Below the pieces are notes generated by a model. That model saw only the letters and a list, made by a program, of their open reading frames with translations. It had not been told where the DNA came from and searched no databases. Shown here in pieces: positions 11,165 to 25,053 of a stretch of 25,064 nucleotides of DNA. The stretch comes from Candidatus Eiseniibacteriota bacterium (GTDB lineage: Bacteria > Eisenbacteria > RBG-16-71-46). Made by a program: the position numbers and the translations under genes. The stretch is from the NCBI GenBank assembly GCA_005893185.1, contig VBOS01000149.1:1-25064 (forward strand). Reading direction: 5' to 3'. Each line of letters begins with the position of its first letter. Positions within the stretch are counted from its first letter, which is position 1.

Positions 11165-11374
11165 CTAGGGCTCCCCGTTCCGATGAAAGACCGCACCGGC
11201 GCGGAAGTCTACGTCATTCCGCTCCAAGGCGAGCGCATCGCCGATTCGCCAGCCCGTATCGAGGCGGTCCCTCCCGCTCGCGCACGCGCTCGAATGCGTC
11301 CTTGATGCGCCCCTCCTCCGCGATGCGCCGGGCCGCTCGCAGTTCGCGCTCCAGCCCCACGCGGGAGGCCGCAT
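11165..11374 (-). other. Possible small or degraded ORF upstream of rnr
   Basis: Perfect AGGAGG SD 4 nt before ATG 11374, giving a 69-aa ORF. The most protein-like segments lie in two different frames (GLERELRAARRIAEEGRIKDAFERVRERE and RLDTGWRIGDALALERNDVDFRAGAVF). Confidence 0.25.
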
Positions 11375-11465
11375 GCAACCTCCTGACCGGCCCGCCGTAT
11401 TGTCAACGAGGGCAATGTGCTCCCGGCCCGGGAGGGCACTCATTCCCACCACCCGGAGGTTCGCG

Positions 11466-11909
11466 ATGAGCAAGGAAAGGACGCTGGTCGTGCTGGTCGC
11501 AACGGACGCGTTTCTGGCGTTCTCGGTATGCGGAGTGGAGGCTTTCTTCCAGTGGACGCTTCCTTCGCCCCTGCGGGAATTCGTCGGCGGGTCGGGGCAC
11601 CCCAGCTTCCGGCAATTCGGGATGCTGTGGCTGTGGGGCCTGACGGCGGCATGCGCAATCACAGCCTGGATCGGGCTCGTCAACTACTGGTGGTTCGCCC
11701 GTCGCTTGTACATCGCATCCATGACAGCCACGTTGCTCCTCCGGCTGGCGTCCGGGCCGGTGGTGATGACCCCACTCGGGGCCATGCTCGACACGCTGGA
11801 CTGGGCGGCCGGCGGAGCGATTCTGGGGCTCGTCTACCTCTCCGATCTGAGTCGGCGCTTCGAGAGGCGGACCGTGCCGGTCGTGAACGGCGCGCAATCC
11901 AGGGCTTGA
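11466..11909 (+). CDS. Hypothetical integral membrane protein (147 aa, about 4 TM helices)
   Basis: SD GGAGG before ATG 11466 (MSKERTLVVLVA...). Several long hydrophobic segments. No family recognised. Confidence 0.7.
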   Translation: MSKERTLVVLVATDAFLAFSVCGVEAFFQWTLPSPLREFVGGSGHPSFRQFGMLWLWGLTAACAITAWIGLVNYWWFARRLYIASMTATLLLRLASGPVVMTPLGAMLDTLDWAAGGAILGLVYLSDLSRRFERRTVPVVNGAQSRA

Positions 11910-11928
11910 GGCCCGAGAGGGCGCGGCT

Positions 11929-12585
11929 TTAGCGCGACGATTCCCCGGCCACCGGCGACGCGCCGAGGACCTCGATGACCGTCACGGGGTGGATCTCCCA
12001 AGCGGTCGCGCGCCAGATGGTCTTGCCCGGCTTCCCGGTGTTGAGCGACTCCGGGGCGTGGTCGTAGTCGAACATCATCCATCCGGTCACGCGCACACGA
12101 TGGCGCGTGAGCGCGGCCGCGAGCGCAGCTGTGGACCAGTCCTTGCCCTGCGCGTGAACCTTACGCCGCCATCGTGGAGTCACCTCGACGATCACCCGCT
12201 GATCCGGCCGGGAGCGTTGCGCATCGAGCGAAAGCTCGATGTGCGTGTCGCGCCCGGCGGGGCTCGTCGCTTCGCAGTTGGCACTCTCGATGCCGCCGAC
12301 GTAGACCGTGTCCACGTAGCCATCTGCGATCGCGCCCCTGCCTGAGGAGAAGCGCGACTTGTCCTGGCCCGGGGCGACCATGGCCTCGAGCGTGATGGCG
12401 TGATCGATCTGGGCAGCTGCGGGCGCGGCGTCGCGATTCTTGAGCCGGTTGAGGGCGCGGGAACGGGCAGTCGGCCCGGTACCTTGGGGCGGGCATGACG
12501 GCGCCGCCGGCAGGGCCGGACCCACGAACGTCGCGCCCAGGAAGGCGAAAATCGCGATCTGCCGCGGCCACGGTCGGAGGCTCAT
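11929..12585 (-). CDS. Exported hypothetical protein, possibly OB-fold-like (218 aa)
   Basis: Likely start ATG 12585, with signal-peptide-like MSLRPWPRQIAIFAFLGATFVGPALPA. The body has RDTHIEL, VIVEVTPR, VRVTGWMMFD and WEIHPV segments, a pattern I associate with a conserved uncharacterised family. Confidence 0.7.
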   Translation of the reverse strand: MSLRPWPRQIAIFAFLGATFVGPALPAAPSCPPQGTGPTARSRALNRLKNRDAAPAAAQIDHAITLEAMVAPGQDKSRFSSGRGAIADGYVDTVYVGGIESANCEATSPAGRDTHIELSLDAQRSRPDQRVIVEVTPRWRRKVHAQGKDWSTAALAAALTRHRVRVTGWMMFDYDHAPESLNTGKPGKTIWRATAWEIHPVTVIEVLGASPVAGESSR

Positions 12586-12713
12586 GCCAGAGGTATCGAC
12601 CCCTCGGCGCGTGTCGTCCAGTCCGAGTCGAGGGACCGGCCCCGGGTCCATTGATGTGATCGAGGATCGAGGCTACTTCACTCTGCGCCCGCGGCGCCGC
12701 CCGGGACCGGCTG

Positions 12714-12722
12714 TGACATAAT
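12714..12722 (+). promoter_or_regulatory. Candidate extended -10 promoter element for the TMTC-like gene
   Basis: TG-A-CATAAT (TGn plus a near-consensus TATAAT) in the divergent intergenic gap. No recognisable -35. Confidence 0.35.
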
Positions 12723-12730
12723 CGGAGATC

Positions 12731-14612
12731 TTGAGCGAGCACCGAATCCGCTCCCAGAGCTCGAGGCCGGCCGCCAGAAATGAGCGCCGGGCTCGCGCGA
12801 CGCCCCCGCGCCGTCCCGTCACGGGAGGTCTCATGGCGGCGCTCGTCGTGACGGGGGCGGCGATCATCGCGTATCACAATTCCTTCGAAACCCCATTCCT
12901 GTTCGACGACCAGCCTCACATCCTGAGGAATCCACAGATCCGCCACCTGTGGCCACCGTGGGAGGCGATGGCGCACACGGGTCGGCCGATCGTGCAGCTT
13001 TCCCTCGCGGCCAATTACGCAGTGAGCGGCTTCGATCCCTGGAGCTACCACGCGATGAACGTGGCCATCCACGTTCTCGCGGGGCTCGTGCTCCTGGGCA
13101 TCGTCCATCGGACCTTCGCGAGCATCGAACTTCGCGATCGCTATCGCCCGGCAGCCGCCGGGCTCGCTATCGCCTCGGCACTGATCTGGATCGTTCACCC
13201 GCTGCAGACGGAGGCTGTGACCTACGTCATCCAGCGCTCGGAGTCGCTGGCGAGCCTGTTCTACCTGATCACCCTCTACGGGGCGATTCGGGGCGCCGAC
13301 TCCGCACGGGCATGGCGCTGGTACGTCGTGAGCGTGGCCTCATGCGCGCTGGGGATGGGAAGCAAGCCGGTGATGGTGACGGCGCCGGTCGCGATCTTGA
13401 TCTACGACCGCATGTTCCTCGCTCGCTCGTTCCGGGAGCTGTGGGATGCGCGACGCGGCCTGTACTTCGGCTTGTTCGCGACTCTGGGCCTGATGCCGCT
13501 CCTGTTCGCGAACGGACCTCAGGAGTGGCGAACCAGCGCGGGCCTCGGCGTATCTGGGGTGACACCGGTCCTTTACGCGGGCACCGAGCCCGGCGTCATC
13601 GTTCACTACCTTCGGCTCTGTCTGTGGCCACAACCGCTGTGCCTCGACTACGACTGGCCGATCGCCCGGACCGCGAGCGCCATCGTGGCGCCGGCCGTCA
13701 CCATCGCGGCGCTGGTGTCGCTCACGGCCTGGGCGCTTTGGAAGCGAAGTCGGCTTGGCTTCCTCGGCGTCTGGTTCTTTCTCGTCCTCGCGCCGACCTC
13801 GAGCGTGATCCCGATCGCCGATCCGGCGTTCGAGCATCGCCTTTACCTCCCGCTCGCGGCAGTGACGGTCCTCGGCGTGTGGGGGGGATACGAGGTGACC
13901 GTCGCCCTGGCGCGGAGGTTCGACTGGCCCGCCGCGACTCGCAGCATCGTCGCCGTCCTGGCGCTGCTGTCCATCGTCGGCCTCTTCACGGCACGGACGA
14001 TCGCCCGGAACTTCGACTACCGCAGCGCCATCGCCATTTGGACCGATACGGTGGCCAAACGCCCCGCGAATCCCCGCGCGCATACCAATCTCGGCATGGC
14101 GTACCTGACGGATCGGCGGGGCGACGAAGCGCTCTCGCAGTTCTACGAGGCCGTGCGCATCGATTCGAGCTACGGGTTCGGTCACCTGGCCCTGGCGATG
14201 GCATTGCGAATGGCGGGACGCTCCGATGAAGCGCTCCCGGCATGCCGACAGGCGGTCCGGCTCCCATTTCCTCCTGGGAAGCCTTCTGATCGACCGCGGG
14301 CAGGTCGATGAAGGCTACGACCACCTCTTGATCGCGGAGCGGCTCGAGCCTGATCGGGCGGCCACGCGGTACACCATCGGCATGGTGCTGGAACGCCGGG
14401 GCAAGACGAGCGAAGCGATCCGCGCCTATTCGGAGGCGGTGCGGATCAAGCCGGATTACGCGGACGCCCACCGCGACCTGGGCCTGGCGCTGGCGCGCGT
14501 CGGTCGCCTGGATGAGGCCCGCCGCGAGCTCTCGACCGCGCTGGCTCTATCTCCGGAGGATGCACGAGCGAGGCAGGGCCTCGATGAACTCCGGCAGGAC
14601 ACGGTCCGATAG
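12731..14612 (+). pseudogene. TMTC-like GT-C membrane glycosyltransferase (protein O-mannosyltransferase-like) with C-terminal TPRs, frameshifted near 14264
   Basis: FLFDD, YHAMNVAIH, HPLQTEAVTY..QRSE, SKPVMVTAP, YLRLCLWP..LCLDY and EHRLYLP are typical of the TMTC/DUF1736 family. TPRs continue in the 14226..14612 frame (HFLLGSLL...AHRDLGLALARVGRLDEA). The start may be ATG 12833, which has SD GGGAGG. Confidence 0.8.
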
Positions 14613-14698: not shown

Positions 14699-14705
14699 AT
14701 GGGTC

Positions 14706-14801
14706 CTACCGGATCCGCTTCTTGTGACGGTTCTTCCGCAGGCGCTTCTTTCGCTTGTGGGTCGCGATCTTCTTGCGCTTGCGTTTCTTTCCCGAGCCCA
14801 T
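14706..14801 (-). CDS. 31-aa Lys/Arg-rich AURKAIP1/COX24 (DUF1713, bS22/mS38-like) small ribosomal-type protein
   Basis: Below the ORF-track cutoff. Manual translation gives MGSGKKRKRKKIATHKRKKRLRKNRHKKRIR*, with SD AAGGAG. It matches the recalled GKKRKR.K.ATHKRKKRLRKNRHKK signature. Confidence 0.85.
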   Translation of the reverse strand: MGSGKKRKRKKIATHKRKKRLRKNRHKKRIR

Positions 14802-14833
14802 CGGATCTCCTTGTCGCGGTTTCGTCGAGCGAC

Positions 14834-15139
14834 CTACCGAACCACGGTCTCTTCCGGTTCCACGCTGCCCAGGACCTGGGCCTTCAGTTCCTTGCTGGGC
14901 TTGAAGAGCGGAACGAGCTTGGCGGGCACCATCACCTCGCCGCCGCTGCGCGGGTTGCGCGCCCGTCGCGCCCGTCGCTCGCGCACTTTGAATGTGCCGA
15001 AGCCGCGGATCTCGAGATGCTTGCCCTCGGTGAGCGCCTGGCTCACCACCTGGAAGAGCTCCTGCACGATGATGCCTGTGTGGCTCTTCGATACGCCGGT
15101 TTCCGTCGCGATCGTCTCCACGAGCTCGGCCTTCGTCAT
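14834..15139 (-). CDS. hup: Histone-like DNA-binding protein HU/IHF family (101 aa)
   Basis: Start ATG 15139 with SD AGGAGG. MTKAELVETIA...LEIRGFGTFKVRERRARRARNPRSG..V.VPAK.VP.FKPSKELK. Confidence 0.93.
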   Translation of the reverse strand: MTKAELVETIATETGVSKSHTGIIVQELFQVVSQALTEGKHLEIRGFGTFKVRERRARRARNPRSGGEVMVPAKLVPLFKPSKELKAQVLGSVEPEETVVR

Positions 15140-15150
15140 GGGGTCCCTCC

Positions 15151-15696
15151 TCAGGATTTCGGGTTTCGCCCTGTGGTGCTCACTGCTGCCGGCACACGCA
15201 ATCCGGTGAGCCGCATGGGCCCGGAGCCTTCTCCGGCCGCTGGCCCACGACCGCAAACGCGGAGAGCTGCCGCTGGACCTCGCGCGCCCCGCAGTGCGGG
15301 CACGGCGGGCTTGCCTCGTCCGCGCGCGCCTGCAGGTTCTCGAAGCGCTTCCCGCACGATGCGCAGTGGTACTCGAAAATCGGGATCGTCCCTCCTCGCG
15401 CGGCCTCCCCACGCCTCCCGCGCCTCGCGGCGCGAAATGCGCGACCGCAATGTAGCCACCACGACCGTGCGGATCGCGCCGCGTGGGCGGCGCAGCACCT
15501 GCGCCGCGCTGTTGCCTTCGTCCACCACCAGCACGCGATCGCCTACGCCCGCGTCCACCACGTCGACCGCCAGCATCGGCTGGCCCTTCGGGCTGCCTGC
15601 CACGTCCACCGGCTGGACGAGAAGCAGCTTGTGGGCCGCGAGGTCACCGTGCTTGATCGTGGCGACCACCTCCCCCACCACCCGCGCCGTGATCAT
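15151..15696 (-). CDS. BMC-P shell vertex pentamer (EutN/CcmL family) #3, normal C-terminus lost with read-through
   Basis: MITARVVGEVVATIKHGDL..KLLLVQPVD...AVDVVDAGVGDRVLVVDEG.SA. Homology stops at IRTVVVA (about 15454), where the usual (G/A)IVD strand is missing. The ORF then runs out of frame over the zinc-ribbon gene. Confidence 0.85.
   Translation of the reverse strand: MITARVVGEVVATIKHGDLAAHKLLLVQPVDVAGSPKGQPMLAVDVVDAGVGDRVLVVDEGNSAAQVLRRPRGAIRTVVVATLRSRISRREAREAWGGRARRDDPDFRVPLRIVREALREPAGARGRGKPAVPALRGARGPAAALRVCGRGPAAGEGSGPMRLTGLRVPAAVSTTGRNPKS
15180..15386 (-). CDS. FmdB-family zinc-ribbon protein (68 aa) with apparent ATC start
   Basis: Not in the ORF track. (I)PIFEYHCASCGKRFENL...CPHCGAREVQRQLSAFAV...CGSPDCVCRQQ* matches the MPxYEYxCxxCG..FE.L...CPxCG...R.LS.F pattern. 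AGGAGG (15391-15396) sits 4 nt before ATC at 15386-15384. Confidence 0.8.
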   Translation of the reverse strand: MPIFEYHCASCGKRFENLQARADEASPPCPHCGAREVQRQLSAFAVVGQRPEKAPGPCGSPDCVCRQQ

Positions 15697-16052
15697 CTCG
15701 CGGCTCCCGTCGACGGAGCGGGCCCGGTTGCCGGAGGCGGGCCCGACGTGGGCCCGGCCGCGCGTCCCGGCGGCGCGGGATCGAGTTTCTCCTCGCGGAG
15801 GTGGTCCACGATCCCCACGATCGCTGCATCGGCGGGATTGTCGGTGTTCGGGAGCGCCATCCCCGCCTCCCGGGCGCGCACGTAGAACACCTGCTGACCG
15901 GGCGCGGCCGAGACCAGGTCCACCGCCACGAACGGACGCCCCTGGTCCCCGCCCGACGTGTCCGTCGGCTGCAGGAGAAGGAGCCGGTGCCCCTTCCACG
16001 ATGGGACCTTCTCGGTGCAGACCACCGTTCCGATCACGCGCGCGAATCTCAT
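15693..16052 (-). CDS. BMC-P shell vertex pentamer (EutN/CcmL family) #2 with Pro/Gly/Ala-rich tail
   Basis: MRFARVIGTVVCTEK...LLLLQPTD...VAVDLVSAAPGQQV...ADAAIVGIVD, then a low-complexity tail. ATGA overlap with the next gene. Confidence 0.92.
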   Translation of the reverse strand: MRFARVIGTVVCTEKVPSWKGHRLLLLQPTDTSGGDQGRPFVAVDLVSAAPGQQVFYVRAREAGMALPNTDNPADAAIVGIVDHLREEKLDPAPPGRAAGPTSGPPPATGPAPSTGAAR

Positions 16053-16071
16053 GCGGGCATCGTCGCCGGCA

Positions 16072-16638
16072 TCATCGCTCGGCCGTCGCCCCCAGGATCT
16101 TCGCCTTCATCTGCGCGTGGAGCCGCGGCACCACCACCGAGCGCGTGAGCAGCCCGCGCTTCACGGCCTCGTCGCGTCCCGCTTCGATCGCGGCCTGCAC
16201 GTCGTGAACCGCGCCCGAGACGTAGAAATAACCCTTGCCGCCCAGCCCGTTGGCGAGCTTGATGTCGCGCACCACCACGTGGGCGGCCTTGGCGGCCTGA
16301 TCGGCCGCCACGATCGTGGCGGCAGCTGTCATGGTCTCGATCACTCCGAGCGCGTCGTGGTCCACCTTGGGAGCTGTGCCGGCCAGAGCCTGGAGCACGC
16401 TCTCGTGGATGTTGGGGATGAAGAGCGAATCGAGCAGCGTCTCGCCGGCCACGTCCACGCCGCGCCGGAACGATGCGCGCACCGGGCCGACCTCGCCGCC
16501 GATCAGCACCCAGTACTTGCCGGGCGAGAGCGTGCGGGCTTCCAGCAGCTCGACCTCGGCGGTCTTCACCATGGCGTCGCCGACCACGGTGCCCTGGGCG
16601 ATGCTGCTGGTCTCGATGGCGGCGATCGCGACCGGCAT
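16072..16638 (-). CDS. BMC-T tandem-domain shell trimer (PduT / single-layer type, 188 aa)
   Basis: Start ATG 16638 (TGATG overlap with the aldehyde dehydrogenase stop). Two BMC domains: IETSSIAQG..VGDAMVKTAEVEL...PGKY.VLIGGEV and ALGVIET...I.AADQAAKAA.V...GLGGKGY..VSGAVHDVQAAIEAG. Confidence 0.92.
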   Translation of the reverse strand: MPVAIAAIETSSIAQGTVVGDAMVKTAEVELLEARTLSPGKYWVLIGGEVGPVRASFRRGVDVAGETLLDSLFIPNIHESVLQALAGTAPKVDHDALGVIETMTAAATIVAADQAAKAAHVVVRDIKLANGLGGKGYFYVSGAVHDVQAAIEAGRDEAVKRGLLTRSVVVPRLHAQMKAKILGATAER

Positions 16639-18050
16639 CACACGATCCGGAAGTGGTCGACCAGGGTGCAGCGCCGGATGCGCGTGAAGCTGCGCGCGGT
16701 GGTCATGCCTTCGCCCGTGGGGCTCGCGATCGTGAAGCTGGTCGGCCCCTCGCCCCCGAATCCCAGGCCCGCGAAGTTGGGCCCATTCTTGACGAAGATC
16801 GAGCAGTCGCAGGCCCGCGCCATCTTCGAGAGCTTGTCGATGTTGCGCGAGTGCATCGAGGCGGTGTGGCGGTAGCCGTGCTCGACCGCGATCGCGAAGT
16901 CGATCGCCTCGTCGCATGTGCGCACCCGCGTGATCGGGTAGACCGGCATCATCATCTCGGTCCACAGGAACGGGTGGTCGTTGTCCACCTCACAGACCGC
17001 GAGCCGTCGCGAAGGATCGCACGGGATCCCGGCCTCGCCGAGGATCTCGTGCACGTTCTTCCCCACGTACTTGCGATTGATCACCGCGTACTTGCGCGGA
17101 CCCTGCTCCTTCTCGAGCAGCATGCCGCGCAGCTTCTCGGTCTGGTGCGGCTGGAGCATCACTGCGCCCGCGCGCGCGAACGCCTCCTTCAGCCGGTCGG
17201 CCACGATCGAGACCACGATCGCTTCCTTCTCGTCGGTGCAGATCACGTTGTTGTCGAACGATGCGCCTGCGATCAAGTCGCGCGCCGCCCGGTCGAGATC
17301 CGCGGTCTCGTCCACCACCGACGGGGGATTGCCGGGCCCGGCCGTAATCGCCTTCTTCCCCGCGTTCAGGGCCTCGCGCACCACCGCCGGCCCGCCGGTC
17401 ACAACGTTCAAGCGGATGCCCTTGTACTTGAGCAGCGCCTGGGCGATCTCGAGCGTCGGCTGCTCCACCGAGTGCAGCAGCGGGAGCTGCGAGCCCGCGC
17501 GCCGGGCCGCGCGGTTGATGAGGTCCACCGCCAGGTTCGAGACCTTGCGCGCGTTGGGGTGCGGGCAGAAGACCGCGGTGTTGCCGCCCGTGATCATCGA
17601 GAGCCCGTTGTTGATCACGGTCTCGCTGGGGTTGGTGACCGGCGTGATCACCGCGATCACGCCGTAGGGCGCGCGCTCCATCAGCGTGAGCCCGTGGTCG
17701 CCCGTCCAGGTGAACGGCTCGAGGTCCTCGGTGCCCGGCGTCTTCTCGGTGACCAGCTTGTTCTTGAGGATCTTGTCCTCGACCCGCCCCAGACCGGTCT
17801 CGGCGACCGCCAGCTCCGAGAGCGTCTTGTAGTTGGCAGCCAGGGTTTCGCGCGCGGCAGCGAGGATGCGCTTGCGGGTCTCGAGCGGGGTGCGCTCATA
17901 GGCCTCGAATGCCGCGCGGGCGGACTTGACCGCAGTTTCGAGGTCGGGGTGGATGCCGAGCAGCGGCTCGGCCCCCGGCTTGCCCACGGGCCTGCCGTTC
18001 TCGAGCCGCTCGAGCACGTCGGCCACGATGGCTTCGATGCGCCGCTCCGT
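16638..18050 (-). CDS. BMC-associated CoA-acylating aldehyde dehydrogenase (EutE/PduP family), true start codon apparently missing
   Basis: GLTLMERAPYGVIAVITPVTNPSET, NVVTGGPAVV, AGPGNPP.VVDETAD, catalytic SFDNNVICTDEKE, TEMMMP and GFGGEG..SFTIA.PTGEG. In-frame sequence upstream of GTG 18026 reads TERRIEAIVADVLERL, an encapsulation-peptide-like helix. Confidence 0.92.
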   Translation of the reverse strand, partial: TERRIEAIVADVLERLENGRPVGKPGAEPLLGIHPDLETAVKSARAAFEAYERTPLETRKRILAAARETLAANYKTLSELAVAETGLGRVEDKILKNKLVTEKTPGTEDLEPFTWTGDHGLTLMERAPYGVIAVITPVTNPSETVINNGLSMITGGNTAVFCPHPNARKVSNLAVDLINRAARRAGSQLPLLHSVEQPTLEIAQALLKYKGIRLNVVTGGPAVVREALNAGKKAITAGPGNPPSVVDETADLDRAARDLIAGASFDNNVICTDEKEAIVVSIVADRLKEAFARAGAVMLQPHQTEKLRGMLLEKEQGPRKYAVINRKYVGKNVHEILGEAGIPCDPSRRLAVCEVDNDHPFLWTEMMMPVYPITRVRTCDEAIDFAIAVEHGYRHTASMHSRNIDKLSKMARACDCSIFVKNGPNFAGLGFGGEGPTSFTIASPTGEGMTTARSFTRIRRCTLVDHFRIV

Positions 18051-18321
18051 CCTTGCCGCCGATCTCGACCGCGTCCACGATGCCGCAGATCACGGCGTCC
18101 ACCGGCTTCTCGCGGGACATTTCCGTCATGCGCGCCGAAGAGCCTTGCGCCACCAGCACCAGCTCGCCGGTCCCGGCGCCGACCGCGTCCGCCGCCACCA
18201 CGTGGTTCCCGGTGGGCTTGAAGTTCCCGTCCACCTCGCGCACCAGCAGCAGCTTGAGCGAGAGCAGGTGCGAGTCCTTCCGGGTCGAGACCACCGTCCC
18301 CAGCACTTCCGCCAGGATCAC
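17896..18321 (-). CDS. BMC-P shell vertex pentamer (EutN/CcmL family) #1, stop apparently lost at about 18051 with read-through
   Basis: MILAEVLGTVVSTRKD..L...KLLLV...VAADAVGAGTGELVLVAQGSSAR...PVDAVICGIVD.VE. The domain ends at IGGK (about 18052), and the remainder is an Arg-rich out-of-frame overlap with the dehydrogenase. Confidence 0.9.
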   Translation of the reverse strand: MILAEVLGTVVSTRKDSHLLSLKLLLVREVDGNFKPTGNHVVAADAVGAGTGELVLVAQGSSARMTEMSREKPVDAVICGIVDAVEIGGKDGAAHRSHRGRRARAARERQARGQAGGRAAARHPPRPRNCGQVRPRGIRGL

Positions 18322-18329
18322 GGCCGCTC

Positions 18330-18629
18330 CTACTTCTTCGCCGCCGCTCCGGTCGCGCGGATCGGGAGCACGTCTTCCAGCATCGGGTGCGGCCGCGGAA
18401 TGACGTGGACCGAGACCACCTCGCCGACCTTGGCAGCTGCAGCTGCGCCCGCTTCAGTGGCTGCGCGCACCGCCGCCACGTCGCCGCGCACGATGGTGGT
18501 GACGTAGCCGCCGCCGATCTTCTCGTAGTGCACGAGCTGGACTCGCGCGGCCTTCACCATCGCGTCCGAGGCCTCGACCATCGCCACCCAGCCGCGTGTC
18601 TCGATCAGTCCCAGGGCTTCTTCGTTCAT
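18330..18629 (-). CDS. BMC-H shell hexamer, canonical EutM/PduA-like (99 aa)
   Basis: [25 protein letters not shown]...[22 protein letters not shown]......[20 protein letters not shown]. Confidence 0.96.
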
Positions 18630-18651
18630 GCCTTGCTCCTTGCCGAGAGGA

Positions 18652-18954
18652 TCAGTACATGCGGGGCGTCCGGAACACGCCCGGCCCCGCGAGAGAGTCT
18701 TCCATCTGGCTGTCCGGCGCAGGGATCACGTGCTTCGCCAGCAGCTCCCCCACGCGCGCAGCTGCGCTCGCACCGTGCTCGACCGCCGCCTCGACCTCGG
18801 CGACGTCGCCGCGCACAGCGACCGTGACCAGCGCCGCCGCCGTCACCTCGTAGCGGATCAGGCGCACCTGCGCGGTCTTGCACATCGCGTCGGCGGCCTC
18901 GATCGCCCCGACCAGTCCGCGCGTCTCCACGAGCCCCAGGGCTTGCTTGGCCAG
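18652..18954 (-). CDS. BMC-H shell hexamer, divergent (probable CTG start at 18954; alternative GTG 18993)
   Basis: [27 protein letters not shown]...[17 protein letters not shown]....[25 protein letters not shown] (18961-18967) lies 6 nt before CTG, giving (M)[12 protein letters not shown]. Confidence 0.92.
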
Positions 18955-19017
18955 CGCCTGCTCCCCCGATGAGGACGAACTCCATGCGGCCACGGCAGCT
19001 ACCGGGGCGCGCGCCGC

Positions 19018-19046
19018 ACGCTATCAGGGATGGGGGGAGGGGTCAA
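19018..19046 (-). promoter_or_regulatory. Sigma70-type promoter of the BMC operon
   Basis: Minus strand TTGACC (19046-19041), exactly 17 nt, then TAGCGT (19023-19018), with an extended -10 TGn immediately upstream. Predicted TSS near 19011. Confidence 0.65.
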
Positions 19047-19216
19047 CGCGCATCTGCGTGTGAATTGGGAGTTTCGCAACGTCTGTCGGGTCGCGGCCGT
19101 GTGGAATATCGCGAGCGAGGTGCCGATGACCGGGGCTTGGAGGGTGGGCCCGGCCGTTCGTAGGCTGGGTTCAGCCGAGCAAAGCGAGGGGGAGCGATGC
19201 AGAGCGGAAGGATTGC

Positions 19217-20225
19217 ATGAAGCTGCCGCGAATCCTGCCACTCGTTCTCCTTGCTCCGCTGAGCTTCGCCTCTCCCCCTGCGGCAGACCCGGCCGCGGCG
19301 GATTGCGACCGGGTGCTCTGCTATTTCGCCTGCACACTGAGCAAGGTAGAGTGGCGCATTTACGATCCGGCTCGCGGGACCGACAAGACGTTCCTCACGC
19401 ACGCGCAGCCCGATGTCGTCCGCTGGGATTCCTCGATGACCCGGGTGGAGTACCGGATCGGCCGCGAGGTCTTCGAGGTGGATTGGAAGCTCGGGGCGAA
19501 GCCGCGTCACGCCGTTCGCCTGCCGGAGGTCCGGGGGATGGAGGATTGGTGGTTCAATCCCGACAGCTCGTCCTGGCAGCTCTGGACCATGGCCCCGCTG
19601 CCGGGGGGACCGGACCGGCCCGAGTACAAAGACTGCCGCGACGAGCTCTGGCAGTCATCTCGCAACGGGACAGACTGGCATCTCGTCGTCGCGGACACGG
19701 AAGATTGCCGGGGCTGGTACGAGGGTGATTTTCGCCCCAGCTTCGAATCGGACCCGCGCGGGGGATCGAGAATGCGACGCGCGCCGGCCGTGACGCCGGG
19801 CAGCCTGACGCAAGACCTGTCACCCCAGTCGGACGGCGCCGAAACGGGTCGAGTCGCCTCCAGATTGCGAATTCTCTTTCTACTTCGTCCCCTCGCGCAC
19901 GGTTTCGCAGCGTGGAACCATGTTCCGGTACTGCGATTGTCCACCCGAATCGCCCCGAACCCTCCACCCGGTCTACCTGGCCGACCGGGAGCATGGGACG
20001 CGCACTCTGCTCTGTGGGCCGGAATCCTGCCCCGAAGAGATATCGGGGAACAGCATCAGCGAGGAGTGCGGCCTGTTGCTTATCGCCTGCAGCATCGACA
20101 CGACACGCCTCGTCGATATCCGGACGGGGAGAGACGTGAAGCTAGTGGGCAACTCGACCGGACTTCGGCACGGGGGACTCGTGATGGGGATCGACGCGTT
20201 CTGGGGGCCGCCCCTGAAACGATAG
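19217..20225 (+). pseudogene. Secreted Cys/Trp-rich hypothetical protein, probable frameshift near 19847
   Basis: Signal-peptide-like MKLPRILPLVLLAPLSFAS and SD AAGGA. Protein-like sequence continues after ...SPQSDGAET in the 19920..20225 frame (VESPPDCEFSFYFVPSRTV...GLLLIACSIDTTRLVDIRTGRDVKLV). Removing one G from GGG at 19846-19848 would join the frames. Confidence 0.55.
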
Positions 20226-20256
20226 GCGGGCACTAGAGGCCGGTCCGCTCCAGGAG

Positions 20257-20367
20257 AAAATCATGGGCCCCGGCCGCGATGCGTGTTGTCGTGCAGGGGT
20301 GCGTTTGCACTGCGGGCTCGGGGCCCCAAAAAAGTTCCCCACCATGACCGTGCGCCGGTCCGTAAGA
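20257..20367. repeat. Structured direct repeat, copy 1 (111 bp)
   Basis: Matches 24942..25053 with three differences (GGGG vs GGGGG, T/C at 20311, C/T at 20343). Contains nested inverted repeats and an A6 tract. Confidence 0.95.
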
Positions 20368-20388
20368 TCTCACCTCCATTCGACCCCC

Positions 20389-21702
20389 TCAGCTGCGCAG
20401 GGGCGCCGCCACTTTGCGGTGGGATGGCGCCAGAAGCGAGAGCGCGTAGCGCACCCGTTCCTCGAGTGAGGCCTCCGGCATGCTCTCGCACGCCTCGGCT
20501 GCCCGGCGAGCATCCGCCAGCCGGACGCCCAGCTTCCGCAGCCAGGGGATCACGTCCCGATCGTCCGTCTCTCCGAGCGCCCGTGCACCAACATGCCCCG
20601 GGGCATGCTGGGTCTCCTGCATCCGCCCGCGAGCCGCCGACCCTTGCGCGCCGTGTCCAGGATGCCCCGGGGCATGTTGCTCCTCGGCTCGCCGGGTCCG
20701 TGCCTCCTGCCGTTTGTGGTTCATGAACGTCGTTCCGAAGGCGCACGCGGCGGCGTACTGATTGTGGGCGCGGCACAGCAGCCGGAGGTTCGCCACCGTC
20801 GCCTGACCCCCGCACGCCACCGGATCCTCGTGGTCATACCCGAGCTTCCACGTCGCCGTGCAGCGCTTCCCAGCGTCGCTGACGAACGTGCACCGGCCCT
20901 GATCGCGCTCGCACACGGCGCGCTTGACCGCCGCCGGGATGTGGCGGGCGGAGGCTCCGCGCCGTGAACCCGACCGTGGCCGGGCCGTGGCCGCGAACTT
21001 CTGCTTCTCCTGCTTCTCGATGAACGCATCGACGCACCATTCGATCAGGGTGGCCAGGACTCCCGAGGGAAGCTGGTGGCTCGCCAGGGTCCGGGCGTAG
21101 CGGATCTTCTCCTCGACCCGCCGGGGAAAGCTGCACTGGAGGGCGGAGCGCTCCGCCGACAACGGCAAGATCCTGGCCTGGCCGCCGGGGGACTCCACAT
21201 GCCCCGGGGCATGCCGGGCCGCGTAATCACCCACGGGATCCGGAGCCTGCTCCCCGGTCGGCGCCGAGGTGTCTCCCAGTCGCGCAGGCAGGTCGGGCTT
21301 GGGGAACCGCTCGGCCAGCAGATGAAGGATTTCATCGCGGGTTTTGTGGGTGGCGGCCTCCAGCAGCTCGTCGGCGTTTTCGGGAGTCAATCGGGGCGCC
21401 AGGGTCACGACGCCCGAGAGGTGCAAGCGTCCCTCGGCCACCGCCGCGAAGATCGCGGGAAACTGGCGCGCCGCACGGGCGGCGTAGACCCGTTTGGAGG
21501 CTGCGTCTTCAGAGAAACGGAGCTCGCGGATGCAGTACTCCTTCATGCACGGATAGGCCGCCGGCAGGTAGAGCCTGCGCTCGTCGAACTCGGCGATATG
21601 AGCGAGGACATCGGCATCGGAGGCGCGTCCCCGCGCGACGACTGTCTTCAGGCTGCAATTCAACTCGCCGTCGCCGAGGTGGGTGAGCGAGTAGCGGTTC
21701 AT
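20389..21702 (-). CDS. HNH endonuclease with DUF222-like N-terminal helical region (multi-copy mobile-type family)
   Basis: Start ATG 21702 with SD GGAG. N-terminal LAHIAEFDERRLY...YC..EL.FSEDAA.KR..AAR.ARQFP.IF.A...GRLHLS. C-terminal RHIPAAVKRAV.ERDQGRCTF...RC......YDH..P...GG...VANLRLLCRAHNQY, with CxxC-like Zn ligands and an apparently intact HNH core. Confidence 0.9.
   Translation of the reverse strand: MNRYSLTHLGDGELNCSLKTVVARGRASDADVLAHIAEFDERRLYLPAAYPCMKEYCIRELRFSEDAASKRVYAARAARQFPAIFAAVAEGRLHLSGVVTLAPRLTPENADELLEAATHKTRDEILHLLAERFPKPDLPARLGDTSAPTGEQAPDPVGDYAARHAPGHVESPGGQARILPLSAERSALQCSFPRRVEEKIRYARTLASHQLPSGVLATLIEWCVDAFIEKQEKQKFAATARPRSGSRRGASARHIPAAVKRAVCERDQGRCTFVSDAGKRCTATWKLGYDHEDPVACGGQATVANLRLLCRAHNQYAAACAFGTTFMNHKRQEARTRRAEEQHAPGHPGHGAQGSAARGRMQETQHAPGHVGARALGETDDRDVIPWLRKLGVRLADARRAAEACESMPEASLEERVRYALSLLAPSHRKVAAPLRS
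20592..20607. repeat. Perfect 16-bp palindrome CATGCCCCGGGGCATG inside the HNH gene (copy A)
   Basis: Read directly from the sequence. Encodes HAPGH. Confidence 0.9.
20662..20675. repeat. 14-bp palindrome ATGCCCCGGGGCAT inside the HNH gene (copy B)
   Basis: Read directly from the sequence. Encodes HAPGH. Confidence 0.9.
21198..21213. repeat. Perfect 16-bp palindrome CATGCCCCGGGGCATG inside the HNH gene (copy C)
   Basis: Read directly from the sequence. Encodes HAPGH. Confidence 0.9.
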
Positions 21703-22016
21703 GACCCGAACTCCAGCGGGGGCTGGTCTGATCACGGGGCCGCGGGGGCGACGCTTCCTTGTATCACGAGGGTCCGCGGCGCTCTCAGGGCCGCGGAGAG
21801 CTCACGAAACGCTGCGGCGCGAGATTTTTCCTGGGACGCAACAGTTCAAGCGGTCCGCACGCGGCCGAGGCGCTCTGATGCCCGCCGACAGGAGCCTCAG
21901 CGAGGAAGGGCGAGGCGTATGCCTCAGGCTGTCAAGAGGGATTTTATCGATGGCGCCAGATTCTCGACGCACGCTGACCGCGAGGATCCCAGGTGGGGCT
22001 CAAGCAGCTCGATCCG

Positions 22017-24866
22017 TTACCGAAGCACCGCGACCCGAGCGCGGGCTACGCTCCCGCCCTGAGTGAGCCGGAGGAAGTAGATTCCAGGTTGAAGGGCTCG
22101 GGCTGCCGTGAGGTCGAGCGCGTGGATCCCCGGCCCGAACGTGCCCACCTGCCGCGCCTGCAACAGTCGCCCTGCCACATCCATCAGTTCAAGGCGGGCT
22201 TGGCTTCCGTCGCGCAGCGAGAACTCCACCCGGAGTCGGCCGTCCGCGACCGGGTTCGGGATCGCCCCTCGGATCGCCAGCGCGAGCTGCGCCGGTGCGG
22301 GGTCCCCGACGCCGACCGTGGCCCCGATCGAGAACGCCGGGCTCACGCCGAGAACGCCCTCCACGATGGCGCCGGTCTCAGCGGGGGATTCCAGCAGCAC
22401 CGCCACCTTCGCCTGGTCGGTCGGAACGCTCGGCACCGTCCAATCGAAGCTCCCGGTGTTGGGCCGCTGGCGGGCGATCGTGCTCCAGTTTACGCCGCCG
22501 TCGGGCGAGAAGAGCAGACTCACCGGTCCTGCCACGACACCGCCCGGTGTCTCCCAGCGCACCTGCGCAACAGAGCCTCCCGCGAGATGGCTGCCGGCCC
22601 GCGGGGCCGCGATCCTCCCGCGGCCTACGCGGATGGTATCCGTGCCGATGAAAGCGTGGCCGTCCAGCTTGCCTTTGATCCTGACCGGAACGCTGTCGCC
22701 TTCGGTTACGGCTAGCTCCACCGCGAGCCGGTCGAACTTCACCGTCAGATCAGGGATGCCATTCCCGTCGTGGTCCCCGAGCACGGTGGGAGCCTCAGGG
22801 TCCACCGGCACCGTGCCGTTCAGCCGGATCGACGAAATGTCGATGTCGCGGGCCTCGAAGGGCAGGGCGGGCTCGAGGAAGCCCGTCACCCACTTGCCGC
22901 GCGAGGCCAGGTTGAGCGTGCCGGGCGAGAAATCGAACGTCATCGAGATCGGGGGCGGTTCGAGCGCGTGTACTACGACGTCGCTCGGACTCCGGGGGCA
23001 GAGGCGGAACGTGCCGCTCGCGAAGTGCAGGATGCCGGTCACGTCGATGATCGAGCCCGAGTCCGGCGGGGCGTAGCCGTCGAGCACAGTGTTCAGGCTC
23101 GAGATCAGGATCGTGTCCTCGAAGGCGCAGCACGGCCCAGCGGCGAGGAAGCTCTGGCCGACGGCCCGCCGCTCCGCGACCCGCAGGTCGTGGACCTTGA
23201 CCAGCATTCCCTCCTCGTCCTCGCCGTTGTCGATATTCTGAGCCGCGTCGCAGGTCAGGTCCGTCAGCACGGTGATGTTCTTGTCGTCCCTCGGCGCAGG
23301 CGCCCGGACGGCCCCGAGGTCCCCGAGGAACACGTTGTTCACGATCTCGGTCTCGCCGCCGAACTCCAGGATCTGCCCCGCGACCAGGTACCGGTTGCCG
23401 ACCACGATGGGCGCGCGGGGACCGAAGATCGCGATGCCGCTCCGATCGGCGCCGTCGGCGTCCTCCATGTACTGCAAGGAGCCGAACTGCCCAACCCCGA
23501 CGCCGCGCACCGTGATCCGTGTGCCCGGCGAGGTCCCGGCGCCCGCGAAGCGCGACCGGTCGACGCACACCGTCAGGCTATCCTCGTCGGCCGCCTGAAC
23601 CTGCTTCACGTCGAGCACACCGTTGATGAACGTGCGGCTCTGATTCGCCATCAGACAATCCGGACAGATCTCCGACCCGATCCCGCCGGCCGTGACGGTC
23701 TCGATGTCACCGTCCCTCCGGACGCTGGTGATGTCGAGCAGCACCACGTGGCCTCCACCACCCTCCACCGTGGCAAGGTCCACGGTTGAGCCATCGATCT
23801 TCGAGGCGAGCGAGTAGTTGCGTTCGTCCTCGGCCGTCGCGACGTCCACGCGCCGCCCGAATTCGAGCCGCACCCTGGTGTTGCTGGTCCCGAGCGCGTG
23901 CGGCCCGTCCGGCGGGCCGGTGAAGCTGTCGTCGATCGGGTAGGCGTCCGTCAGGCTGGTCGCGAACGGTCCGAACAGGTCGTCGCTGTCGCGGACCTGT
24001 ACGCGGTAGGACGTGAACGACGGGTTGCCCGATGGACCCTGGTTCACGATGCCCTGCAACGAGTCGATCAGCGTGCCCACCGCCGGCGGCGTGAAGGTGG
24101 TGAGGGCGTTGCCGTCGATCAGGGTGCTGTCCGACGGGCTCGCCACGCTCACGACCAGGAACGAGCCGAAGGGAAGCCCGGGACGCCCGCCCTGAACCGA
24201 GGTGCGGCCGACGCGGAGCTGACCGCGAACCCGCACCAGGCAGGCTTCCCACTGCTCCTGGATCGCGCTCGTCGCGTTCGGGCTCGGAATCCAGCTCATC
24301 GACGTGGGGGTTAGAACCTGGAAGGGCGGGAGCGGGTTCCCCGAGCTGATCTTGCGGATGACGATGTCGTTCGTGCTCTGGACGACGTCGGGGCCCTCGA
24401 TCTCGGTCGTGCCGTTGAGGCTGGGGAACTCCTGCACGGTGCCGTACACGGCAACGCTGTCGCCGAGGTTGAGGCTGTAGGGAACCGCCTTCCAGTTGTA
24501 GGCGCCCGTGAACACCTGAACCCCGTTGTAGGGACCGCCCTGGCTGTTCTGGATGTAGAAGGCGTACGCAGCCGGCTTGGCGTCGAATCCGATGATGATG
24601 CCCTTGATGCCCAGCACCGTGTCCCCGGAGGCCGGGGAGAAAACCCTCGGGTGGCAAGGTGCGAGCAGCGTGTCAGGCTGCTGGACGTCGTAGATCCTGA
24701 GCGTGTCCGGACAATTTCGGTACGGAGGACCGGGCGGGTACTTGTCTCTCGAGTAGGCGGAACTTCCGGTGCATAGCAGCAGGGCGGTCGCGAGGAGGGC
24801 CTTGGTCAGGCTCCTCCGGTATGGGTTGGCAGAGAATTCAGGGACGCGGGCCGGGGCGGTGATCAT
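22017..24866 (-). CDS. Large secreted multidomain protein (949 aa): tandem OB-fold-like modules, Ig-like domains, C-terminal T9SS/FlgD-like sorting domain
   Basis: Likely start ATG 24866, followed by a signal-peptide-like LTKALLATALLLCTGSSAYS. Two repeats of I/V.DVQ...V.V.G.....Y.(Q/E)(N/D)..G...G(V/I).(V/I)F...G..V.V.G.(V/I).EF...TEI. C-terminus LAIRGAIPNP...VEFSL....ARLELMDVAGRLL...PGIYFLRLTQGG....RVAVLR. The ORF-track start at 25028 lies inside repeat copy 2 and is probably spurious. Confidence 0.85.
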   Translation of the reverse strand: MITAPARVPEFSANPYRRSLTKALLATALLLCTGSSAYSRDKYPPGPPYRNCPDTLRIYDVQQPDTLLAPCHPRVFSPASGDTVLGIKGIIIGFDAKPAAYAFYIQNSQGGPYNGVQVFTGAYNWKAVPYSLNLGDSVAVYGTVQEFPSLNGTTEIEGPDVVQSTNDIVIRKISSGNPLPPFQVLTPTSMSWIPSPNATSAIQEQWEACLVRVRGQLRVGRTSVQGGRPGLPFGSFLVVSVASPSDSTLIDGNALTTFTPPAVGTLIDSLQGIVNQGPSGNPSFTSYRVQVRDSDDLFGPFATSLTDAYPIDDSFTGPPDGPHALGTSNTRVRLEFGRRVDVATAEDERNYSLASKIDGSTVDLATVEGGGGHVVLLDITSVRRDGDIETVTAGGIGSEICPDCLMANQSRTFINGVLDVKQVQAADEDSLTVCVDRSRFAGAGTSPGTRITVRGVGVGQFGSLQYMEDADGADRSGIAIFGPRAPIVVGNRYLVAGQILEFGGETEIVNNVFLGDLGAVRAPAPRDDKNITVLTDLTCDAAQNIDNGEDEEGMLVKVHDLRVAERRAVGQSFLAAGPCCAFEDTILISSLNTVLDGYAPPDSGSIIDVTGILHFASGTFRLCPRSPSDVVVHALEPPPISMTFDFSPGTLNLASRGKWVTGFLEPALPFEARDIDISSIRLNGTVPVDPEAPTVLGDHDGNGIPDLTVKFDRLAVELAVTEGDSVPVRIKGKLDGHAFIGTDTIRVGRGRIAAPRAGSHLAGGSVAQVRWETPGGVVAGPVSLLFSPDGGVNWSTIARQRPNTGSFDWTVPSVPTDQAKVAVLLESPAETGAIVEGVLGVSPAFSIGATVGVGDPAPAQLALAIRGAIPNPVADGRLRVEFSLRDGSQARLELMDVAGRLLQARQVGTFGPGIHALDLTAARALQPGIYFLRLTQGGSVARARVAVLR

Positions 24867-24941
24867 GAGACGAGCCGAGCGTACTCCACGGCTGTGACAG
24901 GTTGCGACGCAAGTGAGGTCTGGGCGCGCATGGAGCATTCC

Positions 24942-25053
24942 AAAATCATGGGCCCCGGCCGCGATGCGTGTTGTCGTGCAGGGGGTGCGTTTGCACCGCG
25001 GGCTCGGGGCCCCAAAAAAGTTCCCCACTATGACCGTGCGCCGGTCCGTAAGA
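24942..25053. repeat. Structured direct repeat, copy 2 (112 bp)
   Basis: Near-identical to 20257..20367, same orientation, offset 4,685 bp. Confidence 0.95.

Follow-up and report, generated by a model that had tools for sequence, protein, structure and literature searches.

The window analysed here, a stretch of 25,064 nucleotides from Candidatus Eisenbacteria, carries a seven-gene operon which, judged by its sequence, is the main locus of a MIC7-type microcompartment, a type already catalogued. The phylum is uncultured, as the original prediction had supposed. Together with tagged DeoC and RpiB enzymes encoded elsewhere in the genome, the operon probably forms a dispersed sugar-phosphate utilisation (SPU) metabolosome, which would lead from deoxyribose-5-phosphate through acetaldehyde to acetyl-CoA.

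Structure of the shell operon

The operon runs on the minus strand from 18993 to about 15454 and encodes, according to Pfam (domain E-values from 1e-20 to 1e-37), BMC-H, BMC-H, BMC-P, an acylating aldehyde dehydrogenase (AldDH), BMC-T, BMC-P and BMC-P. Its junctions are tight or overlapping, with ATGA overlaps at AldDH/BMC-T and between the last two BMC-P genes; content, order and junctions are as originally predicted. BMC-H 1 (18652..18993, minus strand; Pfam BMC, 93.9 bits) is a divergent 'specialised' hexamer protein with non-standard motifs (CKTAQ for VKAAR, IPAPD for IPRPH) and 12-16 unconserved N-terminal residues, and aligns with its relatives at 56-82% identity. BMC-H 2 (18330..18629, minus strand; 103.6 bits) is a canonical hexamer protein with VKAAR, the pore motif KIGGGY and IPRPH, which matches EutM, HO-5815 and PduA at about 1e-35 and is 86-96% identical in relatives. 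It is followed by BMC-P 1 (17896..18321, minus strand; Pfam EutN_CcmL, 101 bits, domain 18073-18321).

The AldDH (Pfam Aldedh; 16638..18038, minus strand, in a frame spanning 16638-18089) is of the CoA-acylating PduP/EutE class; its best PDB matches are the BMC-associated acylating AldDHs 5jfl and 4c3s (1e-120), and the catalytic-cysteine motif FDNNVIC is present. It bears an N-terminal encapsulation peptide (EP) with the core RRIEAIVADVLERLENG, kept in relatives as M-x-x-D-x-x-R-I-E-x-I-V-x-E-V-L-E-R-L. The next gene (BMC-Ts, 16072..16638, minus strand) codes for a PduT-type tandem-domain trimer protein with two Pfam BMC domains, closer to PduT (3pac/3n79, 1e-41, 146 bits) than to HO-T1 (5dih, 2e-23, 87 bits). 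Serine occupies its pore position (SPGKY), and the window copy has no cysteine and therefore would have no Fe-S pore. BMC-P 2 (15693..16052, minus strand; EutN_CcmL, 87.3 bits) ends in some 35 residues rich in Pro and Gly, and its stop overlaps the ATG of BMC-P 3 (15151..15696, minus strand; EutN_CcmL, 73.1 bits over model positions 1-80 of 83, domain 15454-15696). Position 15454, proposed earlier as the end of the operon, is only the end of this Pfam domain: no stop codon occurs there and the assembled frame is open to 15151.

A small zinc-ribbon gene (CxxC...CPxC; 15180..15386, minus strand, frame-2 translation), which we take to be FmdB-like, lies between BMC-P 3 and HU and was located by tblastn at the equivalent place in 16 relatives. 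The HU/IHF-type DNA-binding protein gene (14834..15139, minus strand; Pfam Bac_DNA_binding, 104.7 bits) is invariably the next gene past the shell operon in the roughly 25 loci compared.

The single promoter first proposed for the operon was not recovered, as a sigma-70 consensus scan found no site ahead of it. The only candidate for a promoter or 5' leader is a conserved stretch of about 45 nt containing TTGACC (19007..19052, minus strand) directly upstream of BMC-H 1; in three related loci (L009, L020, L041), blastn aligns 31-47 nt at 85-90% in the same place. Pfam searches of all frames found no signature enzyme, PduL, alcohol dehydrogenase, kinase or transporter in the operon or the rest of the window, in agreement with the original prediction, and apart from upstream proteins without family the flanks consist of housekeeping genes: HU, TPR glycosyltransferase, RNB, aroA, cmk, acyltransferase, rpsA, SPOR and mutS.

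Lesions in the window copy

Four differences set this copy apart from about 25 relatives, including the same-genus genome G080. Compared with the latter, 69 nt have been cleanly deleted between two GACG repeats, and with them the BMC-P 1 stop, the ribosome-binding site of the intergenic gap and the ATG of AldDH; as assembled, BMC-P 1 reads through the AldDH start for 57 Arg-rich codons, whereas in relatives it ends 17-24 residues past the domain. At the 3' end of BMC-P 3, a 7-nt gap and about 30 missing nt disrupt the last strand (IVGVVD in relatives) and abolish the stop, leaving 99 further open codons where relatives end 9-21 residues past the domain. The zinc-ribbon gene starts with ATC instead of ATG or GTG, and a 4.7-kb insertion lies between the operon and the RNA gene that normally stands upstream of it.

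These lesions may impair the operon. It is nevertheless unlikely that decay in this organism has gone so far as to stop production of the compartment or to leave it without AldDH, a reading under which the family-wide function would stand for the relatives. Apart from the lesions, all seven Pfam domains are intact; GC3 is high, no stop interrupts the frames, and the tagged RpiB is intact in the same MAG. Translation of AldDH could begin at an ATC at 18038, with a well-spaced GGAG 6 nt upstream, which would preserve the tag core; a GTG at 18026 is another possible start. The lesions could also be consensus errors in a short-read MAG of 567 contigs.

Type assignment and distribution

The locus is orthologous to that of RBG_16_71_46 (L011), with 66-90% identity and identical gene order. 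The tree files of the catalogue assign bmcType=MIC7 to L011 and label its BMC-T Ts_drab. MIC7, the metabolosome with incomplete core 7, was catalogued with 6 loci and no proposed function (Sutter et al. 2021, Nat Commun 12:3809, Supplementary Data 2, PMC8217296). The window locus matches its description point by point: the same phylum, an AldDH with N-terminal EP as sole locus enzyme, two BMC-H of which one is standard and the other specialised, a triplet of BMC-P, a PduT-like BMC-Ts that lacks a pore cysteine and is not accompanied by PduS, and a satellite CsoS1D-clade BMC-Tdp. Nothing defining differs; the deletion at BMC-P 1/AldDH and the damaged BMC-P 3 end are peculiar to the window copy.

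The closest AldDH relatives (71-81% identity) all come from Ca. Eisenbacteria MAGs with the order H-H-P-AldDH-T-P-P-HU. The operon is kept in about 25 such MAGs, adjoining HU, RNB, aroA, cmk and rpsA, and of 201 genomes sampled from the phylum, 131 have the MIC7 type. Among more distant AldDH relatives, 38 of 59 loci, from at least eight phyla, have the order RpiB-DeoC-Tdp-H-P-AldDH-T-P-P, and the same arrangement is found in an Eisenbacteria genome of another family (G008). By gene order, the window operon is the SPU layout minus its first three genes, apparently relocated in this lineage. It shares with SPU microcompartments the gene order of the core, H through the final P, as well as the AldDH radiation and the pentamer triplet, and differs by an extra divergent BMC-H and by having DeoC, RpiB and Tdp at three separate sites outside the locus. 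It is because the catalogue's definition is locus-based that the locus is not filed as SPU.

Satellite genes and putative packaging tags

A genome scan for further shell genes and EP-tagged enzymes, proposed with the original prediction, recovered all three missing components. The shell set, at first thought to be full, is incomplete in the operon because BMC-Tdp sits on another contig (C280:17140-17781; match to HO-5816 at 1e-74). The RpiB gene (C431:3217-3810) precedes an adjoining adenosine deaminase gene and encodes an N-terminal amphipathic helix and a Pro/Ala linker ahead of the RpiB fold. On C519, deoB-cdd is followed by the N-terminus of a similarly tagged DeoC, of which 32 codons are present before the contig runs out; the complete tagged DeoC occurs in the same-genus genomes G015 and G080. 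DeoC lies within a deoB-cdd-deoC-deoA operon. These findings agree with the earlier suggestion that cargo such as DeoC or RpiB might lie at satellite loci.

A common pattern, h-x-x-h-h-x-x-h-h-x-x-h (h, hydrophobic), runs through the AldDH, RpiB and DeoC tags, whose hydrophobic moments range from 0.46 to 0.62. In an AF2 model of DeoC from G080, residues 3-21 form a helix (pLDDT 82-88) and residues 23-60 are disordered. When a profile built from 76 tags was scored against the genome's own 2994 frames, AldDH (18.5 bits) and RpiB (17.9 bits) stood out from the next best frame (8.9 bits). As in this genome, the DeoC (pfam01791) and RpiB (pfam02502) encoded within the SPU-type locus of G008 bear this kind of tag. 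The tags would presumably encapsulate DeoC, RpiB and AldDH.

Co-occurrence was assessed in 40 genomes of the window's Eisenbacteria family. A tagged RpiB ortholog is present in 34 (69-88% identity, matched from residue 2-4) and a tagged DeoC in 30 (matched from residue 1-4), with two further cut or split copies, counts which overstate independence as the compared genomes are kin, those without tagged enzymes spanning four genera. Five sampled genomes are without BMC-P. Three of these (G043, 98% complete, G147 and G164) have only untagged paralogs, and G100 has an untagged RpiB only and no DeoC match; no BMC domain at all was found in G043, G100 and G164. In the fifth, G156, both tagged enzymes and a Tdp-like match were found, and its main locus has therefore probably escaped assembly. 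Tagged paralogs are thus absent from all four sampled family genomes that seem genuinely to lack the main shell locus. In family f7, which has no BMC, DeoC was detected in one of five genomes, matching residues 98-312 only.

These observations bear on the first reading of the locus as an orphan metabolosome of unknown type, or a generic aldehyde sink, in which shell and AldDH would detoxify aldehydes of unknown or diverse cytosolic origin while the DeoC and RpiB extensions, unrelated to it, could be oligomerisation or regulatory helices. The window's want of a signature enzyme, the incomplete core and missing functional proposal of MIC7 in the catalogue, and three shell-positive genomes with no DeoC match to the query (G019, G095, G193) speak for it. 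We nonetheless consider it improbable, given the physical joining of the core operon to RpiB-DeoC in the other-phyla loci and G008, the tags in G008, the profile result and the co-occurrence pattern. A catalogued type, with tagged SPU-type signature enzymes elsewhere in the genome, essentially displaces the orphan reading, and no generic sink is needed.

Comparison with other systems and proposed function

The likeness to the Haliangium ochraceum (HO) compartment (model shell PDB 5V74) noted in the original prediction amounts to no more than a common core order, P-AldDH-T-P-P; AldDH as sole locus enzyme, the pentamer triplet and a Tdp most similar to HO-5816 are further points in common, and two Myxococcota loci (L082, L087) even read Tdp-H-P-AldDH-T-P-P. 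A compartment of HO type, in which a class II aldolase (pfam00596) would act on sugar phosphates of the fuculose or rhamnulose type, a role suggested for many HO loci, is still a very remote prospect here. HO systems have a single BMC-H, HO-T1-type BMC-Ts, two Tdp and often the aldolase, whereas the window system has two BMC-H, a PduT-like BMC-Ts and one Tdp, and its ortholog is filed as MIC7. No PF00596 match was found in this MAG or in two of three near-complete family genomes, the third giving a weak 40-bit match. The AldDHs of Myxococcota have a long-branched clade of their own in an AldDH tree whose deep nodes are weakly supported. Distal DeoC genes with EP-like extensions have also been noted in some HO genomes (PMC8217296).

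The SPU-type microcompartments of Hodarchaeales archaea (bioRxiv 10.1101/2025.11.08.687404) share the proposed nucleoside-fed chemistry, DERA yielding acetaldehyde and AldDH acetyl-CoA, with enzymes inside the operon rather than outside as in the window system. Their pentamer proteins have basic disordered tails, K/R-rich, conserved and shown to bind DNA; the Arg-rich tails of BMC-P 1 and BMC-P 3 in the window are, in contrast, out-of-frame read-through absent in relatives.

In the dispersed SPU metabolosome that we favour, the shell would consist of two hexamers, a cysteine-free PduT-like trimer and the pentamer triplet, completed by the stacked-trimer BMC-Tdp from C280, with AldDH packaged via its N-terminal amphipathic helix. 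In the cytosol, nucleoside phosphorylase and phosphopentomutase would supply deoxyribose-5-phosphate. Within the shell, DeoC (deoxyribose-5-phosphate aldolase) would cleave it into glyceraldehyde-3-phosphate plus acetaldehyde, and AldDH would trap the latter as acetyl-CoA, producing NADH; an RpiB-type sugar-phosphate isomerase would accompany DeoC, both being encoded within nucleoside-catabolism clusters. The SPU function is itself a bioinformatic proposal (PMC8217296; PMC12747264). We infer the substrate and the recycling of CoA and NAD+; no PduL phosphotransacylase was found in the window's Eisenbacteria family, nor was a tagged alcohol dehydrogenase found. Our analysis adds to the catalogue's MIC7 the link to tagged DeoC and RpiB, and suggests that scavenged DNA most likely provides the sugar which the compartment burns.

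Gene content of the operon and its flanks

The window, 25,064 bases long, is the entire contig C108 and belongs to a metagenome-assembled genome (MAG) of 3.12 Mb in 567 contigs, with 70% G+C and an estimated completeness of 80%. A Pfam search of the operon and its flanks bore out the gene content proposed in the original prediction, namely BMC-H, BMC-H, BMC-P, acylating aldehyde dehydrogenase (AldDH), BMC-T, BMC-P and BMC-P, without a signature enzyme in the window. The seven matches (E-values 1e-20 to 1e-37) are all on the minus strand: BMC at 18652-18993 (H1) and 18330-18629 (H2), EutN_CcmL at 17896-18321 (P1), Aldedh in the frame 16638-18089, a tandem BMC protein at 16072-16638 (T), and EutN_CcmL at 15693-16052 (P2) and as a domain at 15454-15696 (P3). 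The genes within the predicted bounds are thus correct, while the strand and the end coordinate had to be corrected, position 15454 being the end of a domain and not a stop codon. A sigma-70 and terminator scan of 14700-20500 gave no support for transcription from one promoter; it returned zero promoters, and terminators at chance level. Junctions between the genes are tight, those of AldDH/T and P2/P3 being ATGA overlaps, and P2 lies beside P3 with P1 ahead of AldDH. Three EutN_CcmL genes, all in this operon, are the only ones that Pfam detected in the genome.

H2 carries the motifs VKAAR and IPRPH of a standard BMC-H and H1 the divergent CKTAQ and IPAPD. The T protein has the pore motif SPGKY and zero cysteines, and is PduT-like (1e-41, 146 bits, vs 2e-23, 87 bits for HO-T1). 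In AldDH the catalytic-cysteine motif FDNNVIC is present and the best PDB matches, 5jfl, 4c3s and 6gvs (about 1e-120), are acylating dehydrogenases of microcompartments, the N-terminal domains of AdhE following at 1e-51; the enzyme is therefore predicted to be CoA-acylating, of the PduP/EutE class.

In the flanks of the operon within the window, Pfam detected neither a catabolic enzyme nor a kinase, a transporter or a classical regulator. The downstream genes code for HU/IHF, TPR/glycosyltransferase proteins, RNB, AroA, Cmk, an acyltransferase, RpsA, a SPOR protein and MutS. Between HU and RNB, the region 11373-14612 holds plus-strand genes for two unknown proteins, a PMT_2/TPR glycosyltransferase-like protein and a TPR protein; relatives do not have these genes and their HU directly precedes RNB, so that the region looks like a lineage-specific insertion. 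The upstream proteins (19217-25064) match no Pfam family and are not conserved beside the operon in relatives. The tail of an RNA gene, found in the window at 20257-20367 and about 24942-25053, lies in relatives 120-200 nt upstream of H1 and in the same orientation (for example L011:8650-8768 and L046:8722-8841), which indicates that the RNA gene normally precedes the shell operon and offers a lead for its regulation. Between the two, the window has about 4.7 kb of inserted DNA and a further 1.2 kb or so.

Assignment to the MIC7 type and distribution in the phylum

According to the 2021 catalogue of microcompartment types, MIC7 is hosted by Latescibacteria and Eisenbacteria, and its only enzyme besides the shell proteins is an AldDH with an N-terminal encapsulation peptide (EP) (PMC8217296, Supplementary Data 2). 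The catalogued shell combines one standard and one specialised BMC-H with a BMC-P triplet, its trimers being BMC-Ts without pore cysteine or PduS partner (Ts_drab) and a satellite BMC-Tdp, a stacked-trimer shell protein, near the CsoS1D clade (PMC8217296). Judged by motifs, the window operon likewise has one standard and one divergent BMC-H and three BMC-P; its T protein is cysteine-free, a Tdp is encoded at a satellite site, and AldDH is the sole enzyme, the core of its EP (RRIEAIVADVLERL) being conserved in relatives.

Scanning one genome per species with the AldDH gave about 25 loci (71-81% identity), whose titles nearly always name Candidatus Eisenbacteria, and the gene order H1-H2-P1-AldDH-T-P2-P3-HU-RNB-aroA-cmk-acyltransferase-rpsA-SPOR-mutS is common to all of them. 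The locus of RBG_16_71_46 (L011) has the same gene order as the window, with identities of 66% for H1, 90% for H2, 90% for P1, 78% for AldDH, 70% for T, 78% for P2 and 72% for P3. Two proteins of RBG_16_71_46 carry 'bmcType=MIC7 (main)' in the tree files of the catalogue, where its T ortholog A2W00_06470 is labelled Ts_drab/MIC7. These labels, together with the synteny between RBG_16_71_46 and the window, settle that the operon belongs to MIC7, a type already known. The Haliangium ochraceum type (HO) has a single BMC-H, BMC-Ts of the HO-T1 type, two BMC-Tdp and often a pfam00596 aldolase, whereas the window genome has two BMC-H, a PduT-like T, one Tdp and no PF00596. A class II aldolase was also considered as the signature enzyme and rejected, PF00596 being absent from the MAG and inconsistent in near-complete relatives.

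BMC-P was found in 131 of 201 sampled genomes of the phylum, nearly always in exactly three copies; it is present in 76/86 genomes of the window's own family and in 0/41 of another. These counts indicate that the MIC7 compartment is widespread in the phylum and vertically inherited.

Two loci have titles at odds with their content: L018 (DATJEP010000109.1) is titled Candidatus Udaeobacter (Verrucomicrobiota), yet holds an Eisenbacteria-type syntenic locus, and L080 (CAMAWH010000002.1) is titled as a Klebsiella pneumoniae MAG, yet holds a Myxococcota-like Tdp-H-P-AldDH-T-P-P locus. Errors of binning or labelling are the probable explanation for both. A frame change cuts the AldDH match in two in a pair of MAGs whose contigs are very long (L041:9986-11402 and L046:9986-11381), and it is more likely to stem from indels of sequencing or assembly than from genuine pseudogenes.

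Three displaced genes of the SPU layout

Further AldDH relatives, more distant at 53-61% identity, belong to Calditrichota, Chloroflexota, Planctomycetota, Verrucomicrobiota, Acidobacteriota and Actinomycetota, among others; of 59 such loci, 38 show the order RpiB-DeoC-Tdp-H-P-AldDH-T-P-P, the layout of the SPU type. The complete layout is also present in G008, an Eisenbacteria genome of another family. The window operon corresponds to this layout minus its first three genes, all of which were found elsewhere in the MAG; DeoC (pfam01791) and RpiB (pfam02502) thus lie outside the window locus, whereas the SPU type encodes both within its BMC locus.

The BMC-Tdp gene, on contig C280, codes for 213 residues and is the only BMC-domain gene of the genome outside the operon; its best solved relative is Haliangium HO-5816 (1e-74). 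Its neighbours, an M29 aminopeptidase and an ABC-F ATPase, were considered as cargo and rejected, with no sign of such a role. The RpiB encoded at C431:3217-3810 (197 residues) has an amphipathic helix at its start (core EVRRAVRAAVDRAL), which about 30 residues of Pro/Ala-rich linker join to the RpiB fold, and in the AlphaFold model the helix spans residues 4-19 and the chain is unstructured to residue 49, where the fold starts. An adenosine deaminase gene follows rpiB in this MAG and, among relatives, in each of the 28 loci that continue beyond rpiB. A second RpiB without tag, at C329:1799-2221, adjoins a run of N bases and has an unreadable N-terminus.

The third gene is at the end of C519, a contig of 2,474 bases that carries alr-deoB-cdd and then a gene broken off by the contig end after 32 codons. 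The first residues it encodes are RERDELVDIITRRVMEGLA, and a stretch of Gly/Ala/Pro comes next. In relatives the gene after cdd is deoC, in an operon deoB-cdd-deoC-deoA, and its product has the same helix start as on C519, then a linker, a short conserved cysteine-containing module and the aldolase barrel; in a same-genus DeoC model the helix covers residues 3-21 (pLDDT 82-88) and residues 23-60 are disordered. The contig break explains why no Pfam match to DeoC was obtained in this MAG. The module between linker and barrel (about residues 50-90 in the relatives' proteins, L115-L144) has the motif H-D-P-x-T-C-E-R-C-R-x-(F/W)-G-V with two cysteines in most family members, and a cysteine-free variant in some genera, e.g. 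in G037.

Satellite genes for DeoC and RpiB had been suggested in the original prediction, and the tagged RpiB on C431 and the tagged DeoC N-terminus on C519 agree with it. Its description of the operon as an orphan was accurate as to the signature enzyme missing from the window, and was not supported as to an unknown type, MIC7 being catalogued and tagged DeoC and RpiB being encoded elsewhere in the genome.

In the AldDH tree, the enzymes of the family form one clade (100/100) inside a radiation of loci with adjacent DeoC, and the HO-like enzymes of Myxococcota a separate long branch; the deep nodes of this tree are weak. In two other Eisenbacteria lineages, L111 (G087:C1:1314000-1331000) and L030, PduL stands ahead of H-H-P-AldDH-T-P-P; it is absent from this MAG and its family. 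The PduL frame of G087 has a Cys-rich N-terminal stretch and then an EP-like helix.

Lesions of the window copy

Comparison of the window with all relatives, including the same-genus genome G080, revealed four differences: two lesions in the operon, an altered start codon in a zinc-ribbon gene and the 4.7-kb insertion upstream. At the P1/AldDH junction (18041-18070, minus strand; compared with L178:1540-1735), a clean deletion of 69 nt between two GACG microhomologies takes about 11 last codons of P1 with its stop, the intergenic region, and the ATG and four codons of AldDH. As assembled, P1 continues for 57 out-of-frame Arg-rich codons; since the deletion is not in frame, no P1-AldDH fusion results. 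The only possible starts left to AldDH are ATC at 18038, with GGAG 6 nt upstream, and GTG at 18026. At the 3' end of P3 (15386-15470, minus strand), a 7-nt gap and about 30 bases missing relative to relatives replace the conserved final strand IVGVVD and remove the stop, leaving the frame open to 15151 across the next gene. The four differences may be genuine decay, or else errors in the consensus of a fragmented MAG. A DNA-binding role for the Arg-rich P1 and P3 tails, by analogy with Hodarchaeales, was considered and rejected, since these tails are missing in all relatives and overlap the frames of other genes.

A small zinc-ribbon gene (CxxC...CPxC; 15180-15386, minus strand), presumably FmdB-like, lies between P3 and HU and is kept in 16 relatives. 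It starts with ATC, 4 nt after AGGAGG, where relatives have ATG or GTG; the ATC of AldDH is thus a second putative ATC start in the same operon.

Putative packaging tags and their co-occurrence with the shell

The N-terminus of AldDH in relatives follows the pattern M-x-x-D-x-x-R-I-E-x-I-V-x-E-V-L-E-R-L-E-x-G. The helices of DeoC and RpiB have the same hydrophobic pattern, with hydrophobic moments of 0.46-0.62, and the same kind of N-terminal helix is found on the DeoC and RpiB that G008 encodes inside its BMC locus. When a tag profile built from 76 segments was run over 2,994 coding-like frames from the MAG, AldDH scored 18.5 bits and RpiB 17.9 bits, the third match being internal with 8.9 bits. 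No further tagged cargo was detected beyond these two, within the reach of a short profile and an 80%-complete genome.

Among 40 sampled genomes of the family, which are kin, a tagged RpiB ortholog is present in 34, besides a housekeeping paralog (45-54% identity), and tagged DeoC was matched from residue 1-4 in 30, with two additional copies cut or split. No DeoC match was obtained in three shell-positive genomes of the family. BMC-P is lacking in five of the 40: G043 (98% complete), G147, G164, G100 and G156. Only untagged versions of DeoC and RpiB occur in G043, G147 and G164, and G100 has an untagged RpiB only and no DeoC match; BMC domains are entirely absent from G043, G100 and G164. In G156, the two tagged genes are present along with a Tdp-like match, which suggests that its main locus is probably unassembled. 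In a shell-less family (f7), DeoC was found in 1/5 genomes and matched only from residue 98. This co-occurrence with shell genes is the strongest argument for the tags as putative encapsulation peptides, and it indirectly supports, together with the tags and their structural models and the profile scan, the prediction that the compartment takes up DeoC and RpiB as cargo.

Proposed function of MIC7

Our comparisons suggest that MIC7 is a dispersed SPU compartment, of which the tagged DeoC and RpiB are embedded in nucleoside-catabolism operons. In such an SPU-type pathway, DeoA (nucleoside phosphorylase) and DeoB (phosphopentomutase) would supply deoxyribose-5-phosphate, and the encapsulated AldDH would convert acetaldehyde to acetyl-CoA. 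A classical PTA_PTB family enzyme is present and untagged, and EutB, of the ethanolamine module, was detected in none of four genomes of the genus. Neither the catalogue nor a full-text search combining Eisenbacteria with microcompartments yielded this assignment of MIC7. The window locus is not a new kind of system; what is new is the specific functional assignment proposed for MIC7.

A broader proposal is that the cargo genes moved into nucleoside-catabolism operons, that the core organelle works without phosphotransacylase or alcohol dehydrogenase, and that expression is controlled at the RNA level; we regard this as rather improbable. If true, shell and cargo would be regulated separately, a novel route of CoA/NAD+ recycling across the shell would operate, e.g. 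through the Tdp pore, and the conserved, sigma-54-driven structured RNA could control the expression of the microcompartment in a new way, at the level of RNA.

About twenty catalogued types, MIC7 among them, combine an AldDH with no known source of aldehyde. Only packaging tags and joint occurrence with shell genes would reveal the DeoC and RpiB of a disassembled SPU, which suggests a recipe for other fragmented types with an 'incomplete core': a search for distal tagged paralogs of pathway enzymes that vanish with the shell genes. For MIC7 itself, our findings offer a testable function in a widespread soil and sediment phylum, which would be to break down the deoxyribose of DNA or nucleosides that the cell has scavenged.
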